Positions 2,340 to 19,273 of a stretch of DNA of 64,000 bases are shown piece after piece. The translations under genes and the position numbers were made by a program. Origin of the DNA: Torpedo marmorata (lineage: Eukaryota); contig OZ360223.1 in assembly GCA_977017645.1 (NCBI GenBank), forward strand, positions 224,502,001-224,566,000, in the 5' to 3' direction. Every line of letters begins with the position of its first letter. Positions within the stretch are counted from its first letter, which is position 1. A model generated the notes under the pieces. That model worked only from the letters and a program-made list of their open reading frames with translations. It was not told the DNA's origin and made no database searches.

Positions 2340-3735
2340 CTTTGGAAAAGTTTTTTTTTTTTTTAAAATATTTTATTTTAAAATTTTCAATTTTTTCACA
2401 ATAATACAAAATAATGTAAAATATACATTAAACATCAGTTAAATTCGATACATAGGAATTTCGCATTACCATGAGTCTAACCCCATCTAAACCACCCTTA
2501 CTAAAACAACCCACCCTCCACCCTTCCCATCCCTTATCCCCCCCCCATACTAGAACTAAAAAAGAAAAGGGAAGGGAAAAGAACAATTGAAAATATATCT
2601 GTACATATCCATGGCTTGATGGAGGAAATTCCACAATGTTCATTATTCAAATTTAAACTTAAGAGAGCCAGCGGGGTCTGGGATGCAAGGCAACATATTT
2701 AAATATTCATTCCTGATAATTGGATAAATGGACGCCAAATTTGTAAAAAGAGCCCGTACTTATTCCTCATATTGTATGTTATTTTTTCCAATGGGATACA
2801 ACTCTGCATCTCTGAATTCCATCTACTCATACTCAGATTTATGTCCAATTTCCAGGTCACTGCTATACCTTTCCTAGCTACTGCTAGTGCAATTTTTACG
2901 AATTTTAATTACCATATGGATAATTTCAATTTTGGTCTAGCTCCCTCTACATTTCCCAATAAGAACAGGTCAGGCCTTCTTCTTCTCCACATCTAAAACA
3001 TCTATTTGGTATTGTAGAATTCATCTTGTTCAGTTTTTGTGGTGTGAGGTATATTTGGTGTAAGAAGTTGTATTGTACCAGTCTATATCTTACATTAACA
3101 GTATTAGTCATACTATCTAAGCATAGATCCGACCATCTTTTTTCATCAATTATAATATTAAGATCTTGTTCCCATCTTTGTCTGGACTTATGAAGTCCTC
3201 GTTTTTGAGCTCCCTTCTGTAACAAAGAATATAATTGGTCCATTTATCCCATTAATGTTAAAATTCAAGAATCTCAATACGTTACTCATTTTTAATTATG
3301 TTTCGTTCCTATTAATGTCACCCCCTTCATCCCAGACCCCCTTCTCACCCTCCATAACTACTTTCTTCAGTCTCCATCGAGCCAACATATATTCCTTGCA
3401 ATAATACATAGTTACTATAATAAAAATATACAATTACTAAGTACATTCCCCCTCCCTATAGAAAAGAAAACATGCTCTAACTATAACCCCACTAACGCTG
3501 CTAATATATACAGCGCTACCCCCCTCTATTTTACGGGCCGCGGCCTTAGCCGCGGAAGTACACATGATTGTAGCAGGAGTCAGGAACTCACCCTCCTCTC
3601 CCCGACCCCCCTGATATCACACTTTTAACATAAACCATTTCTTATCATTAGGATTTCCAAGTTATAAATTATAAACTGGTATATATCCCTCTTTTTACCA
3701 ATATATAATAGAAACTAGAAAAACACATTCATTTT

Positions 3736-4076
3736 TCAATGTTCCTCTCTAGTCGGTGGCAGCTCATTGGCAAATTCCTCTGCTAAAGCATAGTTTGTAA
3801 AGAATTTGTTTTGCTGGTCCGGTGTAAAGATCTTCAAGGTCGCTGGGTGTCGCAGCACAAATCTATACCCCTTCTCCCACAAAGTCTTTTTAGCTGTATT
3901 GAATTCTTTCCTCCTCTTCATCAAGTCGGCGCTTATGTCCGGGTAAAAAAGAACTTTGGCTGCTTTATATATCAAGGGACCTCCTCTCTGTCTTGCTACC
4001 TTCATTGCGGTCTGCAAAATTCGCTCCCTGTCTTGGTATCTTGAAAACTTGATTAGTATAGAACGTGGGTATTGAT
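3736..4076 (-). CDS. L1 ORF1p C-terminal part (downstream of Gypsy insertion)
   Basis: DQYPRSILIKFSRYQDRERIL...FYPDISADLMKRRKEF...HPATLKI; in frame with 8286-9054 once the Gypsy element and one TSD are removed (369 aa reconstructed). Confidence 0.88.
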
Positions 4077-4081
4077 CTTGT

Positions 4082-4329
4082 TGATATACCTATCAATGAC
4101 AGACGCGAGTCTAGAAGTGCAGGAATTAATAGGCTTTTATTACCAGAATCAAAGCCAGGGCTAATACACCTTGACCTGATGATCCCTGCTGGATTGTCCC
4201 GGAACTGGGGGAGGAGTAGCTGGCTCAATGCCTTTATTCCATGTAAAGGGGGAGGGGTCACCGGGACAGACAGACAGGTCATGGTCATACTTGCCTCAGG
4301 CCACAATACAAACAAAGTGGTTTACCACA
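4082..4329 (-). repeat. Gypsy 3' LTR
   Basis: Direct repeat of 8038-8285, preceded by the polypurine tract on the minus strand. Confidence 0.97.
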
Positions 4330-4424
4330 TTCACCCCTTCTTTTAGAACAAGTCCGACGGGGGGGTGAAGTGGATACCATAGAGGAGAAAAAAAATACAA
4401 ATATCCATAGATTATATACAGTCT

Positions 4425-5395
4425 TTACAAATCAAGTTTCACCGGCGGCCGGATTTGCCGCCGTGACCTGCGTAGCGCCAGCGGTGATGGTAGTGGTTGT
4501 GGAATGAGGGTACGAGTGAGGGTACGTGATACCTGCGGAGACGGTTGTGGTTGTGGAACGGGAGTAGGTATAGTAGGGTGGATCTGGGTCGGGTTCGCCT
4601 CCTGCCTGGCTAGTGGCCTGTCCAGCTGTGACGGGGGCGTTGTAGCCGCCGTGCTGGGAGGCGGATGGGCCGGAGGGGGCAGCTGCGACCCGGCATTCCC
4701 GCTGTCGGGGACCTCTTCTGACGCTCCTGCAGGCGCCAGGTCCCGTATTGACACCGTGTCTTCCCGCCCGTCGGGGAAAACCACGAATGCGTACTGCGGG
4801 TTCGCATGGATCAGCTGCACCCTCTCGACCAAGGGCTCGTACTTGCTACTCCGAAGATGTTTGCGGAGTAGCACCGGCCCCGGGGACGTCAGCCAGGCAG
4901 GGAGTGTAGTCCCGGTGGTCGATTTTCTGGGGAAGGAAAAGATACGTTCGTGAGGGGTAGCGTTAGTGGCAGTACACAGAAGGGATCGTATGGAGTGGAG
5001 GGCGTCCGGGAGAACCTCCTGCCAGCGAGCCACTGGCCACCCTTTTGCTTTCAGGGCCAGTAGTGTCGCTGTCCATACTGTGGCGTTCTCCCTCTCCACC
5101 TGTCCGTTCCCCCGTGGGTTGTACCCCGTGGTCCTACTGGTAGCGATGCCTCGGGTCTGCAAGTGCTGTCTCAGCTCCCCGCTCATGAACGCGGATCCCC
5201 GGTCGCTATGGACATAGCTGGGGAACCCGAACACGGTGAAAACCTGGTGGAGAGCCTTGATAGCCGACGCCGCCAAGGTATCTGGGCAGGGGATGGCAAA
5301 GGGAAACCGCGAGTACTCATCGATGATGTTGAGGAAGTACACATTGCGGTTCGTGGAGGGAAGGGGGCCCTTGAAGTCTATACTGAGACGTTGAA
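4425..5395 (-). pseudogene. Gypsy integrase core and C-terminus (frameshifted from pol)
   Basis: SIDFKGP, HSDRGSAF, GNGQVERENA (D,D35E); 1-nt frameshift near 5390 separates it from the HHCC region (HNDLCH..CRVC). Confidence 0.92.
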
Positions 5396-6820
5396 CGGGC
5401 GGGTGGCTTTGACCAGCTGTGCTCTGTCGGGGCGGTAGTACTGCGGTTTGCATTCCGCACAGACTCGGCAGCTGCTGGTCATGGTCTTGACCTCATCCAG
5501 GGAGAAAGGCAGGTTCCGTGCTTTAATGAAGTGGAACAGCCTGGTAACTCCTGGGTGGCAGAGGTCATTATGCAGGGAGTATAACCGGTCGATCTGCGCG
5601 CTGGCGCACGATCCCCGGGATAGAGCGTCAGGGGGCTCGTTGAGCTTCCCGGGCCGGTAAAGGATGTCGTAATTGTAGGTGGAGAGTTCTATTCTCCACC
5701 TCATGATTTTGTCATTTTTAATTTTACCCCGCTGCTGGCTGTTAAACATGAAAGCGACGGAGCGCTGGTCCGTCAGCAGGGTAAAATGTTTTCCGGCGAG
5801 ATAGTGCCTCCAGTGTCGGACAGCCTCGACAATGGCCTGGGCCTCTTTCTCTACCGCGGAGTGCCGAATTTCGGGGCCTTGCAGGGTGCGGGAGAAAAAC
5901 GCTACCGGTCTTCCCGCCTGGTTGAGGGTAGCAGCCAGTGCGAAGTCCGAGGCGTCACTCTCCACCTGGAAAGGTTCCGACTCGTCCACCGCGTGCATCG
6001 CTGCTCGGGCGATGTCCCCTTTTATGAGGTCGAAGGCCTCACGTGCCTCCGCTGCTAGGGGAAACTTGGTGGATTTGACGAGGGGTCGGGCTTTGTCCGA
6101 GTAGTTTGGGACCCACTGTGCATAATACGAAAAAAACCCGAGGCATCGTTTAAGTGCTTTGGGGGTAACGGGGATCGGAAGTTCCAACAGGGGGCGCATG
6201 CGGTCGGGGTCGGGTCCAATCACCCCGTTTTCCATGACGCACCCCAGGATAGCGAGTCGGGTAGTCCCGAACACGCATTTCTCCTTGTTATAGGTGAGGT
6301 TCAGCGTCTCGGCCGCCTGTAAGAACTTCCGAAGGTTCCTATCGTGATCCTGGCGATCATGACCACAAATGGTGATGTCGTCCAGGTACGGGAAGGTGGC
6401 AGTGAGCTTGAACTGGTCAATGATCCTGTCCATCTCCCTTTGGAACACGGATACCCCATTTGTTACCCCAAAGGGGACGCGCAGAAAATGAAATAATCTG
6501 CCGTCCGCCTCGAAAGCGGTGTATACTCGGTCCTCCCGGCGGATTGGGAGCTGATGGTAAGCCGACTTAAGGTCGATGGTGGAGAACACTTTATATTGAG
6601 CAATCTGGTTGACCATATCCGCGATCTTTGGCAGCGGATAGGCGCCCAGTTGCGTGAACCGGTTGATGGTCTGGCTATAGTCCACCACCATCCGGCTCTT
6701 ATCCCCGTTCTTTACCACGACTACCTGTGCTCTCCAGGGGCTGTTACTGGGTGCAATGATCCCTTCCCCCAGTAAACGCTGCACCTCCGCCTTAATAAAT
6801 GCCCTGTCCCCTGCACTGTA
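5378..6820 (-). pseudogene. Gypsy pol: reverse transcriptase, RNase H and integrase zinc finger
   Basis: RMVVDY, IDLKSAYHQ, VPFGV, YLDD; RNase H SDASD/EKEA/TDQRS/PDALSR; separated from upstream frame by TGA at 6821-6823. Confidence 0.95.
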
Positions 6821-7996
6821 TCACCTACTTTTCGTTGCAATGGGCTTACAGTCAGGGGTCAGGTTGGCGAAGAGTGGCGGGGGTTGGGTCTTTAGCGTGG
6901 AGAGACCACAGGTAGTCTGGGGCGTGTTATTTACGTATTGGGGGTTAGTCACAACGATTGGGGGGTGGGGCCCATCATAGTGCATGGTGACGCTACACAG
7001 GTGGCTTGGCCGCCCCCTCCCGTCGCACGTGGCGCTGCTGGAAACCGGAAGTGCTGCGCGCTGTGATGGCCGCCTCCAGACCTCGCACGAGGTCTCCGCC
7101 GGAAGTGAAGTCAGGTAAGATGGCCGCTCCCGTACCTCGCACGCGGCGCTGCTCGGACCCGTACGCGACTTGGAGCGGCAGGCCTTAGCATAGTGGCCTT
7201 TCTTGCCACAGCTAGAACAAGTCGCGTCTCGGGCCGGGCAGCGCTTGCGCGGGTGCTTGTCGAGCCCGCAGAAGTAGCACTTCTCGGGCTCCCGGGTGAT
7301 AGCGGCGGCGGTTAACTCACAGGTAGCGGCGGGCTCTCGGGCGGCGGCGGCAGCGGCCAACTCACGGATAGCGTCGGCGGCGGCGAGCGGGTCCCGGTAG
7401 ACGGCAGCGGCCGTCGCGTTGCTTGCAGGGCTGACGGTTGGGGCGATCCAAGAAGCAGGCTGCGCCTGCATAGCGTCAGCGTTCTTTAGGGCCGAGTCCA
7501 GATTAAGGATGTTCTGGACGGTCGATTTCAGGGTCAGGTCGGCGTGTTCCAGCAATCGCTGGCGGATGTAGCCCGACCTGATCCCCTTTATGATTGTGTC
7601 CTTTGCCAGTATTTCGGAGTGTTGCTCGGCCGTCAGGGCTCGACAGTCACACGCCCGCACCAGGAGCATCACGTCCTGGATGTATTCGGAGACCGACTCT
7701 CCGGGTCGCTGGTACCGCTGCGATATCCGGTGCCTTGCGAAAATCTCGTTCGCTGGCGTCAGGTACAGCTTTCGGAGGGCTCCCAAGGCATTATCAAAAG
7801 TCTCACAGTCCCTGACGGCGCCATACACTCGCTTGCTTACCCTGGACATGAGGATATCGAGTTTCTGTTCGTCAGTAACTGCTCCGGACGACCTCATGTA
7901 GGCTACGAAGCAGCGTTGCCAAAGTTCGAAATCGCTTGCAGCGTCTTGGGCCAGGGGGTCGATGTCTAGCTTATCCGGCTTTAACAAATTCTCCAT
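6821..7996 (-). CDS. Gypsy Gag with two zinc knuckles, fused across a protease deletion to the pre-RT linker
   Basis: CYFCGLDKHPRKRC and CSSCGKKGHYAKAC; QRPGESVSEY capsid-like motif; no D[ST]G protease motif. Confidence 0.9.
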   Translation of the reverse strand: MENLLKPDKLDIDPLAQDAASDFELWQRCFVAYMRSSGAVTDEQKLDILMSRVSKRVYGAVRDCETFDNALGALRKLYLTPANEIFARHRISQRYQRPGESVSEYIQDVMLLVRACDCRALTAEQHSEILAKDTIIKGIRSGYIRQRLLEHADLTLKSTVQNILNLDSALKNADAMQAQPASWIAPTVSPASNATAAAVYRDPLAAADAIRELAAAAAAREPAATCELTAAAITREPEKCYFCGLDKHPRKRCPARDATCSSCGKKGHYAKACRSKSRTGPSSAACEVRERPSYLTSLPAETSCEVWRRPSQRAALPVSSSATCDGRGRPSHLCSVTMHYDGPHPPIVVTNPQYVNNTPQTTCGLSTLKTQPPPLFANLTPDCKPIATKSR

Positions 7997-8037
7997 CGAT
8001 TGCTCGATTCGGATTTTCTTGAAACTGGTAATAAAAT

Positions 8038-8285
8038 TGATATACCTATCAATGACAGACGCGAGTCTAGAAGTGCAGGAATTAATAGGCTTTTATTACC
8101 AGAATCAAAGCCAGGGCTAATACACCTTGACCTGATGATCCCTGCTGGATTGTCCCGGAACTGGGGGAGGAGTAGCTGGCTCAATGCCTTTATTCCATGT
8201 AAAGGGGGAGGGATCACCGGGACAGACAGACAGGTCATGGTCATACTTGCCTCAGGCCACAATACAAACAAAGTGGTTTACCACA
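8038..8285 (-). repeat. Gypsy 5' LTR
   Basis: Direct repeat of 4082-4329; about 41 nt upstream of the gag ATG. Confidence 0.97.
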
Positions 8286-9054
8286 CTTGTGCTGGTCTTG
8301 CTCTTAAAGCCCTATGGGCTCTTTCAATTTCAATTTCACGCTCAAACTTATCCGCGCCCAGCACTTTCGGTAGCCAAGTCTTCATGAAAGCGATCATGTC
8401 TTGTTCTTCCTCACCGTCTTTAAGACTAACGATCTTTATGTTATTTCTTCTACTAAAATTTTCCATTATGTCCATTTGCTGCTTGAGTTTTTTATTTTCC
8501 ATCTCTAAAACAGTGTAATTATTTTCCATTGCCTCCACTCTTCCTTTAGTATTTTCCACTTCTACTTTTATTTTCTTAACTTTATATTCAATCTTCTTTA
8601 CTTTTAACTTCAAGTCTTTCATATCATCAATTACCTTTTTCACATAGTTCATATCTTCCTTTAATTCCCTGAGTGCTGTTAGTATAGCTGTAGTTGTTGA
8701 CACTTCCCCTTTAAATACTTGCTGTGACGTCTCCGGCGGTTGTTGTTGTAGCGCTTCGGCCTCCAGCTGATCATCCTCATCTTCCGAATCGGAGCTGCTC
8801 GTGTCTCCCTGATCTGAGGACGTTCTTGCCGGTGTTTCGCGCATGCGCGAAGCAGGCCCGATTTCCTCACCGGCGCCATGTTTTTGGCGTCGGGAGGAGT
8901 CAGTGCCTGCCGCCGTACCCATCAACGGAGCCTCCTCCTGGGGCTCCGTTCGCACTTCAGCTCCCTGCTGCCGAGGCCTCTTCCCTGCCGAGGTCTTCTC
9001 TCTCCGTTGAAGCCCAGGTAAGTCCTTTGTTGTTTTAAGTTTTTTCGGAGGCAT
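8286..9054 (-). CDS. L1 ORF1p N-terminal part
   Basis: Coiled-coil region, ENFSRRNNIKIV and IERAHRAL motifs. Confidence 0.9.
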
Positions 9055-9289
9055 TTTTTTCTTTTCTTTGGTAGGTTAAAGCCCCTTTAGAGTAATTTTT
9101 AGCTTACAAGAAGCGGTTTTTTTTCACTTTTTTTAGAGTTCTCAGGGTTTCTACGCCCTGACTCTACTCCATCACGTGACGTCCCCCCTTTGGAAAAGTT
9201 TTTGTTCCCTCTCTGAAGTTTGTCTTTTTTTTCCTCAGGTTTTGACTCCAATCCATCCAGGAAGATCCCCTTGCTGAATGTAACCGTTT

Positions 9290-10099: not shown

Positions 10100-12520
10100 A
10101 TAACCATATAACCAGAAATATTTACAACACAGAAACAGGCCAGTTTGGCCCTTCTAGTCCATGCCGAACACATTCTCCCACCTAGTCCCACTGACCCGCA
10201 CCCGGCCCATAACCCCCCACACCTCTCTCGTCCATATACCTATCCAACTTTTCCTTAAACATTAAAATTGAACCTGCATCCATCACTTCGGCCGGAGGCT
10301 CGTTCCATCCTCCTACCACCCTCTGAGTGAAGAAATTCCCCCTCATGTTTCCTCTAAACTTTTCCCCCTTCAATCTCAATCCATGCCATCTTGTTTGAAT
10401 CTTCCCCACTCTCAATGGAAAAAGCCTGTCCACATTGACTCATAATTTTAAACACATCCATCAAACCACCCCTCAACCTTCTATGCTCCAGGGAATAAAG
10501 TCCCAGCCTGTTCAACCTTTCCCTATAACTCAAACCCAGAAACCCGGGCAACGTTCTTGTAAATCTCCTCTGCACTCTCTCTATTCTGTTTATATCCTTC
10601 CTGTAATTCGGCGACCAAAACTGCGCACAATATTCCAAATTTGGTCTCACCAACGCCTTATACAACTTCAACATGACATCCCAACTCCTATATTCAATAC
10701 TCTGATTTATGAAGGCCAACATACCAAATGCTTTCTTCACCACCCTATCTACGTGTGACTTAACTTTCAGGGAATTATGTACCAGAATTCCTAAATCCCT
10801 CTGTTCTACTGCACTTCTCAATTGTCTTCCATTTAACATGTATGACGTTGCTGATTAATCCTACCAAAATGTAGCACCTCACATTTATCAGTATTAAACT
10901 CCATCTGCCATGTTTCCGCACACTCTTCTAACTGTCCAATATCCCCCTGTAAGCTTTGATATCCCTCTTCACTGTACACAACACCACCAATCTTCATATC
11001 ATCTGCATACTTACTAATCCAATTTACCACCCTATCATCTAGATCATTAATATATATGACAAACAACAATGGACCCAGTACCGATCCCTGAGGCACTCCA
11101 CTAGTCACCGGCCTCCAATTTGACAAACAATTTTCCACCACTACTCTCTGGCATCTCCAATCCAACCATTGTTGAATCCATTTCACTACTTCGTCGTCAA
11201 TACCTAATGCTTGAACCTTCCTAACGAGCCTCTTATGCGGAACCTTGTCAAATGCCTTACTAAAGTCCATAGAGACAACATCCACAGCCTTCCCCTTGTC
11301 AACCCTCTTAGTAACCTCAATGAAAAACTCTATGAGATTTGTCAAACATGATCTACCACGAACAAAACCGTGTTGACTACTCCTAATCAATACTTGTCTT
11401 TCCAAATAACTGTATACACCATCTCTAAGAACACTCTCCATTAATTTACCTACCACCGATGTCAGACTCACAGGCCTATAATTTTCAGGTTTACTTTTGG
11501 AGCCCTTCTTAAAAAGCGGGACAACATGAGCTACCCTCCAATCCTCCGGCACCTCCCCCGTGGCCAGTGACATTTTAAATATTTCTGTCAGAGCCCCCAC
11601 TATTTGTACACTAATCTCCCTCAGGGTCCTCTGGAATATCCTGTCAGGACCTGGAGATTTATCCACCTTTATACTCTTTAAAATAGCCAATACTACCTCC
11701 TCATTAATCTTTATATTATCCATGACCTCACTGCCAGATTTCCTTACCTCACCTGGCTCAATATTCCTTTCCTTTGTAAATACTGAAGAAAAAAATTCAT
11801 TTAAAATCTCCCCCATCTCCTCTGACTTCTCACATAGCCTACCCGTCTGATCCTCAATGGGCCCAATTTTATCCCTCACTATTCTTTTGCTTTTAATGTA
11901 CCTGTAGAAACCCTTTGGATTTATTTTTACCTTGCCTGCCAAAGCAGCCTCATATCTCCTTTTAGCCTTTCTAATTTATTTCTTAAGATTTTTTTCACAC
12001 TCCTTATATTCCTCAAGGACCTCATCTATTCCCTGCTGTCTATACCTGTTGTACACATCCCTCTTCCTCTGAACCAAATTCCCGATATCCTTTGAAAACC
12101 AAGGCTCCCTATATTTTCTAACTCTTCCTTTAATCCTCACAGGGACGAACCGACTCTGTACTCTCAAAATTTCCCCTTTGAATATCCTCCATTTATCTGT
12201 GACATCCTTTCCTAAAAATAAATTATCCCAATCCACACCCTCTAAATCCTTCCTCATCTCCTTGAAATTTGCCTTATTCCAATCAAGAATCTCAACCTTA
12301 GGCCCAGCCCTATCCTTCTCCATTATCAACCTAAAACTAATGGTATTATGATCACTAGACCCAAAGTGTTCCCTAACACAAACCTCTGTCACCTGACCAA
12401 CCTAATAGGAGATCCAATACTGCCCCCTCTCTCGTCGGTTCTTCTATGTATTGATTTAGAAAACTTTCCTGAACACATTTGACAAACTCCAACCCATCCT
12501 GCCCTATTAAAGTATGGCCA
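10100..12520 (-). mobile_element. 5'-truncated CR1 LINE, disrupted ORF2
   Basis: SSDHN (endonuclease end), NYRPVSLTS, DFSKAFDKV, GVPQGSVLGP, KYADD; frameshifts; 3' tail ending in (tatggtta)-like repeat. Confidence 0.95.
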
Positions 12521-13848
12521 GGAATATTTTCATTTCTCTGCTCCTCTGTGCCAGGTCTCCATCATCCCAATTCTATTACATCCTACACGGCTCCTTGTAT
12601 CGTGAGCTCTCCAACTTTATGTAACATGCAATGACCATTTACCAACATGCAGTTGAGACCTATTCTCATGATATATGCTATTAATATAAAAATGTACTCT
12701 TGGCTTCTTCATTGTCCTCTCCTTCTCGTAGTTTGAAATGATCAAGTAACCTGGGCCAAACATGTATATCAGTTGATATTTATTGTGGAATGCCTTTCAT
12801 CAGCTGAAGTATTCACTGTAATGAATTCTGTGAGCCAGAGAAAAGTCACTAAACCTTACTTCTGGTGCTGGATACCTTTCAAGTGTCATCTTTCAATAAT
12901 AACCCTTCAAAATCGAATGTAGAAAGTAATCAGAACTATTAGGCTTTTGGCAACAAAAAAAAGAGAAAGATAGACAAAGACAGATACAAATGTGTAGCAG
13001 TTTTCAAAAAAAATATTTTATTTAAAATTTTAAATCACAAAATACATAAGGTAAAATATAAAATTATCAAAATACTTGTGATATCTTTTCACCCCCCCTC
13101 CCAACCTCCCCTCCCTAACCCTCCCATCCCTACTAATCTAATAAAATAAAATAAAAGAAAGAAAAAGATAGAGTAAGGAGAATGTCAATCTAAAAAATAC
13201 ATCTATAAACTAATTCTATTAGGTTCGCCAGTAGATCCGATACCCAGAGATTTTCAGATCCTTAAACCGACAACTTTCATATATGGGCTCCAAATTTTTA
13301 AAAAGAAATGATATTTATTACGTAAATTATAAGTCATTTTTTCAAGTGGTATACATGCACAAAGTTCTTCATGCCATCTTTCTAACCCTAAATCTACATC
13401 AGATTTCCAAGTAATAGCAATACATTTCATTGAAACAGCTAAAGCAATTTGCCGAAATTCTATTTGATACATATTTAATTTCATCTTAATACTAAGTTTT
13501 TTAATATCTCCAAACAAAAATAACATAGGATCCATTGGGAATGTAATCTTAAATACTTTATGTAAAAAATTTTAACTTTCAACCAAAAATCATAAACTTT
13601 CGGACAAAACCATGTAGAATGTACAAAAGAACCTTCCTGTTTATTACATCTAAAACATAAACCTGATAATTTCGGATTAAATTTCTTTAATTTTTTAGGT
13701 GTTAAATATAATTGATGGGGGGCGTGGCGTGATGGCGTAGGAAGAAGATGCAGAGATACACCTCTCCCAGCAGATAAAACTAAGAAGACTTTTTAAATAA
13801 CTCAACAAAATCAAGAACATCATAAAAAGTGCTATAACTACTTTAAGA

Positions 13849-15219
13849 ATGGCTGGCAGAAAAACGAGAGAACAAAAAGCTAAAAAAACCATGGTACAAA
13901 CAACTCTAATACATGAAGAAAAAAGGCCTACCTTGGAGATGGAGCCTGGGACTGTCCTGCAGATGAAGGCTGGTAAGCGACCTGGCAAACGCTTGTCTGA
14001 ATCGGGAACGCCGACGCTACCTCCGCAGGGAGCTGCGGAAGATGGCGCCGGCGCCCGATCTAAAACTACAAAAAGATTAGAAGAACAAGCGCGCATGCGC
14101 AGAATCGCCGATCTACAACTGCAACTATACGAGGCCAGGATGATGTCATCGGAGGCTTCCCAGACCATACTACAGGCTGGGAAGCCTGCATTATCGTCGG
14201 AATCTGAAGGGGAAAAAGAAGATAGCCAGCTGGGAGAAGAGGAAGCTGAAGATTTTGATGTATATGAAGGTGATATGCAGAGAAAGTTATGTTCAATTCA
14301 AGATAATATTTTACAGGCTATAGCAAAATTGGAAAGGAAAATGGATGCTAAGCTTAATATGACTATAAGTAAAATGCAAGATGAATTTACAGAAGTAAAA
14401 CAGAATATGGGAAGATTGGAGAGTGCTGTAAGTAAAGTGGATGAGAGAGTTAAAAGAATGGAAGAGGAAACTGAAAATAATAAGCATGAAGTTGAAGATT
14501 GTAGAGATAGAGTGGATAAGATGGAAGATACTTTTACTGGATGGCAAAAGCAAAGAGATGAAATGATGCTGAAAATAGAACAGATGGAAAATCAAAGTCG
14601 CAGAAATAATGTGAAAATATTGGGAATACCTGAAAATTTTGAACCTTTAGATACGACCAAGTTTTTTCAAGATTGGTTGAAGCAGATTTTTGAATTTGAC
14701 CAACCAATAGAGCTTGAACGTGCCCATAGGATTGGAAGGAGAGATCAGATAGATCGGAGACCACGTCCAATTTTGATAAAGTGTTTAAGATATCAAGACA
14801 GAGAAAGAATTTTAAGATCAGCAATTCAACATACACGAGATCATGGTGCTCCGATGCAAATTCAAGAGAACAGAATTCTCTTCTATCCTGATTTGAGTCC
14901 TACGCTGGTCAAACAACGTAAAGAATTTAATCCTGCTAAGGCAAAGTTATGGGAGAAAGGCTATAAATTTTCGTTTAAATATCCGGCGACTTTGAGAATT
15001 CAAAATGGTGATGGTTCTCTATTATTTATGGATCCTCGACAAGCCCTGTTACATGCAAATAATCTTCCGAATCTGAGAAGAGTTTACACTGTGGGTACTA
15101 TTCAACAAGCGCAAGAAAGTCAAGTAAGAAGAGAGAATGAAATGCCAGGTTTGATAACCGAAGAAGCTGCCTTGGTTCAGATTGAAGAAGAAAGTGAAAA
15201 TTTGAGAGGAGTTAACTGA
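13849..15219 (+). CDS. L1 ORF1p (coiled coil, RRM, CTD; Transposase_22-like)
   Basis: 456 aa; ENQSRRNNVKILGIPE, LERAHRIG, RPRPILIK, FYPDLS, YPATLRI. Confidence 0.95.
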   Translation: MAGRKTREQKAKKTMVQTTLIHEEKRPTLEMEPGTVLQMKAGKRPGKRLSESGTPTLPPQGAAEDGAGARSKTTKRLEEQARMRRIADLQLQLYEARMMSSEASQTILQAGKPALSSESEGEKEDSQLGEEEAEDFDVYEGDMQRKLCSIQDNILQAIAKLERKMDAKLNMTISKMQDEFTEVKQNMGRLESAVSKVDERVKRMEEETENNKHEVEDCRDRVDKMEDTFTGWQKQRDEMMLKIEQMENQSRRNNVKILGIPENFEPLDTTKFFQDWLKQIFEFDQPIELERAHRIGRRDQIDRRPRPILIKCLRYQDRERILRSAIQHTRDHGAPMQIQENRILFYPDLSPTLVKQRKEFNPAKAKLWEKGYKFSFKYPATLRIQNGDGSLLFMDPRQALLHANNLPNLRRVYTVGTIQQAQESQVRRENEMPGLITEEAALVQIEEESENLRGVN

Positions 15220-15487
15220 ATATTAAATGTATGATTAATTATCTGTTTGGGGGAGGTGGACTCATTGGGACTTTTTCCGAAACCACCACCACTTTAGCGG
15301 TTGTACCGCTTCTCGAGCGACGGAGGGGGGTAGCACTGGGATATATACAGTCCAGTGTTAATTATGGGATGTTCTTTTTTCTTGCTTTTCTATTATTTCA
15401 CTCTATTTGAGGAGAAAATATGTAATCAACGGAATAGGAGGGATGCGTCGGCGGATCTGACAGATAGAGAATGTTTAAAATTTAATT

Positions 15488-18400
15488 ATGGTTGATTCTA
15501 GAAGTATTAATTTTGTAAGTATTAATGTTAATGGGCTTAATAATCCAATTAAAAGGAAAAAAACTTTGGCATATATTAAAAAATTAAAAGTAGATATAGC
15601 TTTTTTACAGGAAACACATTTGACTGATAAAGAACATCAAAAGTTGAAGAGAGAATGGGTAGGACATGTAGTAGCTTCGTCTTTTAATTCTAAAGCGAGA
15701 GGAGTAGCAATTTTAATCAATAAAAAATTACCATTTAAAATACAATCAGTAATGACGGATATAGCTGGTAGGTTTGTTATGGTGCATTGTCAAATTTATT
15801 CAGAAACATGGACTTTTTTAAATTTATATATTGTAAACCCAGAGGATGAACAATTTATTCAAGATACCTGTTTACATTTATCTGAAGCTAAGGAAAATAT
15901 TTTAATTGGGGGAGATTTTAATTGTTGTCTTAATACGAATATGGATAAAACATCTAAAACATCTGTTAGACCTAAAATAGTTAAAAGAATTATTAATTTA
16001 ATGGATGATTTAAATTTAGTAGATATTTGGAGAAAGGTAAACCCTAGAGAAAAAGATTATTCATTTTATTCTTTTCGACATAATTCATTCTCGAGGATTG
16101 ATTTATTTTTAATATCGTCACAAATTCAGGATAGAATAACTCAAATTTCTTATAAAGCAAGAATAATTTCAGACCATTCACCGTTATTAATGACATGTAT
16201 AATTCCAGAGAAAGAAAAAACTGTATATAATTGGAGATTAGATTCTTCTTTATTAAATAGAAAAGATTTTTGTGATTATATGAGAAAAGAAATTCAGGAA
16301 TTTTTAAGAATTAATAACAATTCAGTTGATGATAAGTTTATAATTTGGGAATCTTTAAAAGCATATTTAAGAGGATTGATAATAAGCTTCTCGGCAAAAA
16401 TCAGAAAAGATTATTTGAAGGAAGAAGAAAAATTGGAGGGGGAGATTGAAGTTATGGAAAAAGATTTTCAAAGAAACAAAACAATTTTTAAGAGACAACG
16501 TTTAATGGGGAAAAAATTACATTATAATATATTACAAACTCAAAAAATGGAAAAATTAATTGGTAGAACAAAGCAAAGATATTATGAATTGGGAGAAAGA
16601 GCACATAAAGTTTTAGCATGGCAATTAAAGAAAGAACAAGTTTCTAAAACTATAAATGCTATAAAGAAAAGTAATGGAGATATAACTTATAAACCTCAAG
16701 AAATAAACAATTCTTTTAAAGAATATTATCAAAATTTATATACTTCACAAATGAGTCAAGATGTTGTAAAAATTGATGATTTTTTATCTAAAATTATATT
16801 GCCCAAATTAAATAGTTCTAACAGAGATTTGTTAGATTTACCAATTACAATGAGAGAAGTAGGTGAAGCTTTATCATCATTGAATAGTGGTAAATCTCCT
16901 GGTGATGATGGATTTCCTGTAGAGTTTTATAAGAAGTTTAAAGATTTATTGATACCTATATATATGGAAGTATTGACTCAAATAAAGGAAACTCAGTTAT
17001 TACCGAAAACATTTTTAAATGCTGTTATTACAGTTATACCAAAGAAGGATAGAGATGTATTGAAAACTGAATCGTATAGACCTATATCATTGTTAAATGT
17101 AGATTATAAATTAATGGCGAAAATCTTGACAAATAGACTAGCTAAGTTTTTACCATTTTTAATACATCCAGATCAAGCAGGATTTATTAAAAATAGATAT
17201 TCAAAGGATAATATAGCAAGATTAATAAGTTTGATTAATTTACAAAAGAAGAAACAGGATTTACCGTTAGTGATAGCATTAGATGCAGAAAAAGCATTTG
17301 ATAGATTAGAGTGGAAGTTTTTATTTAAGGTTTTAGAGAAATATGGATTTGGAAATATGTTTATAAATTGGATTAAAACTATATATAAGGAACCTACAGC
17401 TAAAGTAATTACAAATGGTCAAATATCATCTAAATTTTCTTTGACACGGTCAACAAGACAAGGATGTCCATTGTCACCTGCTTTATTTGTATTGGCAATA
17501 GAACCGTTGGCGGAAATGATTAGGAAAGATATGAATATAAATGGGATAAAAGTAGGTGCAGAAGAGCATAAAATTAGTTTGTTTGCAGATGATGTATTAA
17601 TATATATGACAAAGTCTATTGAATCACTTCAACAATTAGATAAAATATTGAGGGATTATGGTGAAATATCTGGATATAAAATAAATTCGGATAAAAGTGA
17701 GATAATGGCTTTATCTCAAGGAGACTATACTAAATGTAAAGAAGTTACAAAATTTAAATGGGCTAAAGAAGCTATTAAATATTTGGGAGTTAAAGTGGAT
17801 ACAAAGTTAGAAAATTTATATAAATTAAATTACATACCTTTATTTCAGAAAATAAAGAAGGATTTGGATAATTGGAAAGATTTACCTATAACTTTAATAG
17901 GAAGAGTGAATTGTATTAAAATGAATATTTTTCCAAGAGTTCAATATCTTTTTCAATCTATACCTTTTGGTATTCCTCAAAAATTTTTTAAAGATTTAAA
18001 AAGTATTATTAGAAAGTTTTTATGGAAAGGAAAACTGGCAAGAGTAAGTATGGATAAATTAACTTGGGAATATGAAATGGGTGGACTACAACTTCCTAAT
18101 TTTCAATATTATTATAAGGCAGCACAATTAAAATTTATAAATGAATTATTTGATTTAACTAAAAATACGGCTTGGATCAATATAGAATTAAGTAATATAG
18201 GAGAAAGAAATAAGGAAGATATTATTTATAAATGGAATTCTAAATTATTATTGATTAAAAAGAAAAAGTCACCGATTATTAGACATTTATTAGAGATTTG
18301 GAATCAATTAGATAATGAAATAGGGCGAAAAGGATTAATTTCTTTAAATATGCCATTATATCAGAATTTATTACTACCATTTTCTATGGATAATCAATTT

Positions 18401-19273
18401 TTAAAATTATGGTATCAAAAAGGAATTAAGAAGATTAAAGATTGTTTTGAGGCAGGAAGATTTGTTACTTTTTCTAGATTGAAAGAAAAATTTGGAATAA
18501 TGGATAATACAATTTTGGCTTATTATCAAGTTAAAGGATTTTTAGTTGAGAAATTAGGGAATCAATTAATATCTCCTAGACAGGATGGGTTAGAGTTATT
18601 AATTACTAATGGAAATGTTAATAAATTTATATCGCAAATGTATAAATTATTTCAGAAAAAGATACCTAAAGTAGGACTGCATAAATCTAGATTAAATTGG
18701 GAATCAGATCTAAATACTAGTATAGATGAACAACACTGGAAAGAATTGTGTAAATTGAGTATGACTAAGATTATTAATGTTAGATATAGATTAGTACAGT
18801 ATAACTTTTTTCATCAATTATATATAACACCTAAAAAATTAAAGAAATTCAATCCGGCATTGTCAGATATGTGTTTTAGATGTAAAGATGAAATAGGTTC
18901 TTTTGTACATTGTACATGGTCATGTTTGAAAATTAAAAATTTTTGGTTTAAAGTCAAAGATTTTTTAGATAGAATTTTTAATATTATGATTCCAATGGAT
19001 CCTATGATATTTTTATTTGGAGATATAAAAAAAATTAGTATTAGAAATAGATTAAATATGTACCAAATAGAATTTTTACGAATCGTGTTAGCTATTTCAA
19101 AAAAATGTATTGCTATTACTTGGAAATCAGATTTAGATTTGAATTTAGATAGATTACATGCAGAGTTACGTTCTTGTATACCACTGGAAAAAATTACGTA
19201 TAATTTACGAGACAAATATCATTTCTTTTTGAAAATTTGGAGCCCATATATGAGAATTATGGGTATGAATTAA
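15488..19273 (+). CDS. L1 ORF2p (APE endonuclease, reverse transcriptase, CCHC domain)
   Basis: 1261 aa; NVNGLN, LQETH, GGDFN, SRIDLF, SDHSP; YRPISLLN, LDAEKAFD, RQGCPLSP, LFADD; CFRC-x8-H-x4-C. Confidence 0.97.
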   Translation: MVDSRSINFVSINVNGLNNPIKRKKTLAYIKKLKVDIAFLQETHLTDKEHQKLKREWVGHVVASSFNSKARGVAILINKKLPFKIQSVMTDIAGRFVMVHCQIYSETWTFLNLYIVNPEDEQFIQDTCLHLSEAKENILIGGDFNCCLNTNMDKTSKTSVRPKIVKRIINLMDDLNLVDIWRKVNPREKDYSFYSFRHNSFSRIDLFLISSQIQDRITQISYKARIISDHSPLLMTCIIPEKEKTVYNWRLDSSLLNRKDFCDYMRKEIQEFLRINNNSVDDKFIIWESLKAYLRGLIISFSAKIRKDYLKEEEKLEGEIEVMEKDFQRNKTIFKRQRLMGKKLHYNILQTQKMEKLIGRTKQRYYELGERAHKVLAWQLKKEQVSKTINAIKKSNGDITYKPQEINNSFKEYYQNLYTSQMSQDVVKIDDFLSKIILPKLNSSNRDLLDLPITMREVGEALSSLNSGKSPGDDGFPVEFYKKFKDLLIPIYMEVLTQIKETQLLPKTFLNAVITVIPKKDRDVLKTESYRPISLLNVDYKLMAKILTNRLAKFLPFLIHPDQAGFIKNRYSKDNIARLISLINLQKKKQDLPLVIALDAEKAFDRLEWKFLFKVLEKYGFGNMFINWIKTIYKEPTAKVITNGQISSKFSLTRSTRQGCPLSPALFVLAIEPLAEMIRKDMNINGIKVGAEEHKISLFADDVLIYMTKSIESLQQLDKILRDYGEISGYKINSDKSEIMALSQGDYTKCKEVTKFKWAKEAIKYLGVKVDTKLENLYKLNYIPLFQKIKKDLDNWKDLPITLIGRVNCIKMNIFPRVQYLFQSIPFGIPQKFFKDLKSIIRKFLWKGKLARVSMDKLTWEYEMGGLQLPNFQYYYKAAQLKFINELFDLTKNTAWINIELSNIGERNKEDIIYKWNSKLLLIKKKKSPIIRHLLEIWNQLDNEIGRKGLISLNMPLYQNLLLPFSMDNQFLKLWYQKGIKKIKDCFEAGRFVTFSRLKEKFGIMDNTILAYYQVKGFLVEKLGNQLISPRQDGLELLITNGNVNKFISQMYKLFQKKIPKVGLHKSRLNWESDLNTSIDEQHWKELCKLSMTKIINVRYRLVQYNFFHQLYITPKKLKKFNPALSDMCFRCKDEIGSFVHCTWSCLKIKNFWFKVKDFLDRIFNIMIPMDPMIFLFGDIKKISIRNRLNMYQIEFLRIVLAISKKCIAITWKSDLDLNLDRLHAELRSCIPLEKITYNLRDKYHFFLKIWSPYMRIMGMN

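Follow-up and report, generated by a model that had tools for sequence, protein, structure and literature searches.

The window, by which we mean the whole 64,000-nucleotide stretch of DNA that was analyzed, carries on its minus strand a 4.2-kb Ty3/Gypsy retrotransposon bounded by 248-bp LTRs and a 5-bp target-site duplication (TSD). The 5' LTR (8038–8285), which starts with TG and ends with CA, is a direct repeat of the 3' LTR (4082–4329) with one difference. The duplicated target ACAAG was located at 8286–8290 and 4077–4081, within a LINE ORF1-like frame that occupies 3700–4081 and 8286–9075. Three frames were found on the minus strand between the LTRs: gag with two CX2CX4HX4C knuckles (6821–7996), reverse transcriptase (RT) with RNase H and the start of integrase (5378–6820; Pfam RVT_1 and RT_RNaseH), and integrase (4425–5492), which gave no chromodomain or SH3_Tf2-1 (GPY/F) match. 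A polypurine tract (PPT, 4330–4344, minus strand) was assigned from its sequence, whose GGGG-x-GAA end is common to relatives. The window copy is broken. A stretch of approximately 530 nt near 7007 that contains the protease core is missing, which makes it shorter than five of seven other fetched copies; a stop lies ahead of RT, and a frame change places integrase in a frame different from that of RT. The protease was found in other copies of the family and in homologues, and the LTRs, TSD, PPT and order gag-PR-RT-RH-IN are those of Ty3/Gypsy elements, with Ty3 RT as the top match among solved structures. A first look yielded 1,611 candidate copies, 40 of which were scored and were all identical over 171 nt, and the window family is young. 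The leader was also identical in 30 of 30 fetched family loci, counting the window copy. The nearest named homologues occur in rays and sharks (79–84% RT identity), followed by those of sea anemones, insects and nematodes (~60%). Other elements nearby are a long LINE in two frames (13801–19273; stop-to-stop lengths of 472 and 1,264 aa) and, on the minus strand at 10354–12401, a fragmented RT element.

Read in minus-strand order, the 5' LTR (8285–8038) is followed by a single A (8037) and then by TTTTATTACCAG (8036–8025), which is a perfect 12-nt reverse complement of CTGGTAATAAAA (8102–8091) in the same LTR, 54 nt away. The LTR end is fixed at this position because the 3' LTR, with its one difference in 248 nt, and the ACAAG duplication define it. 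A 12-nt complement to the leader start arose in only 1 of 20,000 dinucleotide-shuffled LTRs, and the 90-nt stretch folded with z = −5.6. The preliminary description had noted such a complement of the element's own LTR one base past the 5' LTR, in place of TGG, and the LTR ends, TSD, shuffles and fold bear this out. We refer to the minus-strand segments 8025–8036 and 8091–8102 as the primer-binding site and the priming arm, respectively. The arm includes AATAAA (8097–8092) and ends at a predicted cut between 8091 and 8090 (AAA|GCC), while the AATAAA of the 3' LTR has no partner and is predicted to be unpaired. An RCC motif was present at the loop start in 23 of 23 representatives, where it doubled as the anchor. 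A splice-site reading of TTTTATTACCAG and CTGGTAAT was dropped, as neither CAG nor GT is kept in relatives.

Conservation of this pairing was examined on loci from this genome, collected in two gag searches, and from metagenome contigs, which were scanned once. A gag start could be located in 85 loci, of which 62 belong to this genome and 23 to metagenomes (12 of the latter from a single assembly); 23 further metagenome loci lacked one. A perfect inverted repeat of 13–18 nt was present at the same place in 19 of 23 metagenome loci, and one of 9 nt in two. The remaining two failed: L075 has lost its site, and the site of L096 is mismatched to its LTR. At L096 (1300–1460), the primer site of one family type lies behind an LTR with an unmatched arm, as in a decayed, recombinant or misassembled copy. 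Motif anchoring placed 82 of the 85 loci, and 76 pair at 11 or 12 of the 12 positions. When 23 hand-picked arm types drawn from this genome and the metagenome contigs were compared at positions 1–12, Watson–Crick pairs occupied 266 of 276 cells, against 182 ± 8 (maximum 214) for 20,000 shuffles of the partners, a permutation null that, like the others used here, ignores relatedness. Among the pairs of 14 families aligned from this genome, the seven formed by AATAAAA were invariant, and each of the other seven had changed on both sides. Such compensatory change in both arms is what the preliminary description had proposed to look for among family members. Judged from these alignments, the pairing is a lineage trait that is kept while its letters change. 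The 3' end of the arm meets the base 0–1 nt past the LTR end throughout, while the loop length ranges over 34–68 nt. As a control, 20 loci of one Mag-type family in the same genome were inspected; a TGG site was present in 17, and the inverted repeats were only 5–10 nt long.

A second helix, which had been missed in the preliminary description, was predicted by folding between 8090–8081 and 8053–8044 (8044–8090, minus strand). It consists of 10 bp, begins at the base next to the arm and would stack on the primer duplex. In the 14 families 93% of its cells were paired, with two-sided change at only 1 of 10 pairs, and in the 23 representatives it comprised 102 bp versus a null of 71 (maximum 91). 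The two helices also differ in their pairing: the primer helix gave 299 Watson–Crick, no G–U and nine mismatched cells in 22 types (L096 left out), versus 82 Watson–Crick and 17 G–U among 99 cells of the second helix. A primer helix free of G–U pairs would be the outcome if the primer served as template for the site; in Tf1, according to PMC11042837, the primer is copied into the cDNA end.

The ends of the RNA were approached through LINE-made retrocopies, which served as genomic traces of them; two contig runs contained only related sequence and were uninformative for starts. An A-run follows the arm at 12 places in sister families. Four of these are true retrocopy ends, situated 16–18 nt past AATAAAA and accompanied at two of the four by target duplications of 13 and 14 bp, and the arm's AATAAA is a working poly(A) signal in sister families. 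The other eight places were discarded as reverse LINE ends. The latter (L255, L260–L262, L265–L267 and L271) are eight independent reverse LINE insertions into the LTR loop, 10–13 nt past the arm; an insertion hot spot is only suggested by them, as the search pattern favors such finds. For the window's own family no poly(A) retrocopy was found, and its poly(A) site is predicted at 8072–8074 (minus strand) by analogy with the four sister-family retrocopies, which leaves approximately 17 nt of terminal redundancy past the cut. One sister-family retrocopy, L253, is an 82-nt insert with a 13-bp TSD and an A-run at its end. It begins, with one additional G, at the A of CCCC|AGTCC, 53 nt ahead of the predicted cut and approximately 32 nt downstream of the TATA-like GAATAAAGG. 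L253 thus extends from the initiator to the poly(A) end and includes the arm, indirect evidence that the arm lies within the transcript. The window has the corresponding elements on its minus strand, namely GAATAAAGG at 8187–8195, which is conserved in sister families and whose putative TATA function is judged from its spacing of ~32 nt, and the initiator-like CCCC|AGTT at 8159–8166. Transcription of the window element probably starts at the A of the latter (8162), as suggested by the equivalent base of L253 and by a pile-up in a hand-curated set of 24 rearranged copies described below. The preliminary description had expected a start at, or a cleavage near, CTGGTAAT under self-priming; transcription probably does not start there, as the start suggested by L253 and these copies lies 72 nt upstream of the predicted cut. 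Most families also keep an ATTC/ATTT motif 15–18 nt ahead of the predicted cut (8105–8102 in the window, and equivalents).

The rearranged copies carry over-extended primer sites. In L280, the 5' LTR is followed by the exact stretch from initiator A to AATAAAA in inverted orientation and then by a jump into the protease region. Two search patterns for such sites gave 112 and 18 matches, and 116 loci were analyzed, with 12 matches and 2 near-duplicates outside the set. A permissive sort placed 81 of the 116 as reaching the LTR start, and these resemble fold-back products or inversions. The set of 24 comprises copies with an intact 5' LTR and an early stop; L280 was left out, two copies with one junction were merged, 12 rows were dropped for lack of an intact arm or of an initiator that could be located, and the values of four rows were curated. 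Seven of the 24 stop within −1 to +2 of the initiator A and 11 within −6 to +2, both of these intervals having been picked after the data were seen; without curation, the numbers were 7 and 11 of 22. Loop-flipped controls had scattered ends, with 1 of 27 in either window (Fisher p = 0.02 and 0.0006), and 20 of 27 controls ran past the initiator versus 6 of 24 over-extended copies (Fisher p = 0.0007). L319, a close relative of the window family, stops at the initiator A with an offset of 0. Switching could be favored by the C-run beside the initiator. The simplest reading of these sequences is that plus-strand synthesis copied an attached RNA, the 5' end of which would be the start site.

We consider it probable, at approximately 85%, that the element primes reverse transcription with its own RNA, a 5' fragment of which (~72 nt here) would pair with the primer site. 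This predicted self-primer corresponds to 8091–8162 on the minus strand, with the last 12 nt paired, and was deduced from L253 and the over-extended copies. Transcription would start at 8162, after which the arm would pair with the primer site and the second helix would stack on the duplex. A cut at AAA|GCC, at the junction of the two stacked helices, may then be made by the element's RNase H by analogy with Tf1, for which RNase H cleavage of the self-primer is described in the portions available of PMC7175516, PMC5341516 and PMC4600332. Such a cut would free the 72-nt fragment, which stays annealed by its last 12 nt and would serve as the primer. RT would extend it into a 54-nt strong-stop DNA, which could jump to the 3' end through the ~17 nt of redundancy, and plus-strand copying of the attached primer would rewrite the primer site from the arm in every cycle. 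In the families of this genome, the poly(A) signal of the 5' LTR is likely concealed by this duplex as well. Of the two options raised in the preliminary description, tRNA-independent self-priming is the general one.

The exact Tf1 mode, in which transcription starts at the ATTC before the arm to give a primer of 15–18 nt and the RNA from the upstream initiator is minor or non-replicating, is a compatible variant of this reading. An initiator-like motif does lie 15–18 nt ahead of the cut in most representatives, and perfect pairing begins at the ATTC motif in several metagenome types. Furthermore, as the search pattern was blind to extensions of less than 21 nt from the arm, transcription may also start at the conserved ATTC and yield a short primer. 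The over-extended copies, however, pass the ATTC and stop at the upstream initiator, where L253 also starts. We regard this mode as unlikely, though it deserves to be kept in mind and may hold for invertebrate-type families.

The second option of the preliminary description was a hairpin that masks AATAAA only at the 5' LTR. In its favor, the arm's AATAAA is used in four retrocopies and invariant in 14 of 14 aligned families, and folding predicted a probability of being unpaired of ~0 at the 5' LTR versus 0.73–0.97 at the 3' LTR. Masking hence fits this genome's families, in which the signal is used and predicted to be buried, but it does not extend to most metagenome relatives: neither AATAAA nor ATTAAA occurs in the arm of 8 of 12 metagenome arm types, and in two AATAAA lies in the loop instead. 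That the hairpin does nothing but mask, while some other primer is used, is very improbable. Priming is preferred over masking because the pairing keeps a constant register relative to the LTR end whatever the loop length (34–68 nt), as a primer but not a mask would require. Masking alone also leaves the lack of G–U pairs and the stops at the initiator unexplained, and the element without a primer. The reading we favor is Tf1-like self-priming, with poly(A) masking as a likely second role in this genome's families.

Priming by a host small RNA or tRNA fragment, of which the LTR arm would be a captured or mimicking copy, is more doubtful still. Half-tRNA priming is known in Copia lineages, as stated in the available parts of PMC6317226 and PMC10886601, and the tRNA scan that the preliminary description had suggested covered just 30 loci of seven amino-acid types (Lys, Thr, Cys, Gly, Arg, Ala and Asp; top gene per locus). 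The longest matches to the primer site in this set were 4–7 nt, and a search of Rfam gave nothing above threshold and two chance-level matches. tRNA 3' ends are excluded because the primer would end in AAAA, not CCA, and the primer sites of the families differ in step with their own LTRs. With no TGG found in relatives, no tRNA match in this partial set and the pairing conserved, none of the outcomes that the preliminary description had named as fatal to its claim was observed. Least likely of all is that the inverted repeat is kept by DNA fold-back or gene conversion without a priming role: such rearrangements are common (81 of 116 extended-site loci), but their ends are scattered, unlike those of the class behind intact LTRs, they supply no primer, and the register is fixed from fishes to metagenome relatives.

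The lineage was placed on RT–integrase trees, in which reference chromoviruses were recognized by their Pfam domains or by grouping with such rows, and the Mag-type label was assigned from gag and RT motifs. The rows were thinned by identity and by hand to 51, 41 and 30, and Tf1 and sushi were not among them. All members of the lineage fell into a single long-stemmed clade (100/100), apart from both the chromoviruses and the Mag-type elements. It took a weak sister position to the Mag-type clade (supports 72/84 and 84/65) but was not nested in it (100/99), and its RT identity to Mag-type elements is ~30%. AU tests did not reject sisterhood with three chromovirus rows (p = 0.245), nor, on RT–RH alone, nesting in chromoviruses (p = 0.45), a tree that was under-searched such that constrained trees scored higher. 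The RT placement called for in the preliminary description hence yields best trees outside the chromoviruses and AU tests that reject nothing; an origin of the lineage independent of chromoviruses is likely. A Pfam scan of the window and homologues upheld the earlier remark that no chromodomain is visible: chromodomain and SH3_Tf2-1 were absent from the window and from 6 of 6 homologues scanned, while present in reference rows P0228 and P0251, and PF00385 was found in none of the 120 homologues listed. None of the loci from a Chromo search of this genome had an integrase match beside it, and four frames that were read resembled host genes; a chromodomain query for chromovirus polyproteins gave no match. 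The SH3_Tf2-1 search of this genome detected elements with integrase before RT. These abundant Gypsy elements (L239–L248) are presumably of Gmr1 type. Viral contigs contained no relative of the lineage, and the ESM Atlas returned generic RT clusters only.

The window lineage has in common with Tf1 and Tf2 of Schizosaccharomyces pombe, Tj1 of S. japonicus and the Tf1/sushi chromoviruses a primer site beside the 5' LTR that can pair with the element's own R region, independence from tRNA, and a 5-bp TSD. The second helix beside the primer duplex recalls the U5-IR stem of Tf1. Tf1 itself is not known to carry a chromodomain. In contrast to Tf1/sushi, the window lineage forms a separate clade outside the chromovirus rows of the best trees, lacks chromodomain and SH3_Tf2-1, and has two zinc knuckles, a 12–18-bp duplex and a predicted cut at a conserved AAA|RCC, with an arm that bears the poly(A) signal in this genome's families. 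[quoted passage not shown] The lineage appears to work like Tf1; the domain test for membership of the Tf1/sushi group failed. Self-priming is associated with the Tf1/sushi, Tcn1 and plant TAR elements in PMC6317226, PMC6934838 and PMC4600332. In plants it is likewise predicted from sequence for Tcn1 (Gypsy) and for TAR/Houba/Osr-1 (Copia), which differ from the present case in their plant hosts, Tcn1 being a chromovirus and TAR a Copia element. Because TAR belongs to Copia (PMC6317226, in the part available), self-priming can arise outside chromoviruses.

Among animal elements, the Mag lineage shares two knuckles and the 5-bp TSD with the window lineage, but the Mag-type elements found in this genome carry TGG sites. 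The Cigr-1 clade (Ciona; molluscs) is represented by Cigr-1, which is alike in size and in its 245-bp LTR. Its markers, according to the available text of PMC2774666 (supplement 3), are two CCHC arrays, integrase after RNase H, loss of GPY/F, and the lack of a chromodomain and env; the window lineage has this marker set, which is not diagnostic and is shared with the Osvaldo clade. No statement on Cigr-1 priming was found in the literature consulted. In HIV-1, the retroviral poly(A) hairpin occludes AAUAAA in the 5' LTR copy only. Here, by comparison, the hiding strand would be the primer site itself, outside the LTR. To our knowledge, self-priming has been shown experimentally only in fission-yeast elements and predicted mainly for chromovirus kin. 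No report of it in this lineage was found in a literature search that covered older papers and element databases incompletely, so that a prior mention is possible; the available parts of PMC6238403, PMC10886601, PMC3601003 and PMC13524379 contain nothing on this lineage.

In its broadest form, our reading would be that self-priming arose separately from that of Tf1 in a large Ty3/Gypsy lineage spread across animals, and that in cartilaginous fishes a capped 5' fragment of 53–72 nt, cut just behind AAUAAA, is the primer, the duplex both priming and silencing the 5' poly(A) signal and primer copying allowing families to switch primer; we hold this tentatively, at somewhat less than even odds. 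Rays, sharks, sea anemones, insects and nematodes all have named homologues of the lineage, whose copies are very numerous in this 6.2-Gb genome. Self-primed elements would evade control exerted through tRNA supply and tRNA fragments, and annotation that demands a tRNA site overlooks them. If the long primer is real, RNase H-type self-cleavage needs no nearby cap, and priming would be tied to the choice of the poly(A) site. The rearranged copies supply exact candidate coordinates of start, cut and poly(A) site. Other rearranged forms were also observed in the course of the analysis. Three loci of this genome (L320, L322 and L326) are palindromic mini-elements of ~445 bp that consist of a whole LTR, one A, and an inverted U3-plus-arm. 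They are flanked by perfect 5-bp target duplications, which indicates that integrase inserted DNA with two U3 ends. L325, a 3' LTR, bears this additional inverted end as well. In seven further copies (L086, L312, L331, L343, L376, L384 and L389), the primer site is followed by an inverted 3' LTR start and PPT, an arrangement that fits inversion of the internal region from the primer site to the arm of the 3' LTR.
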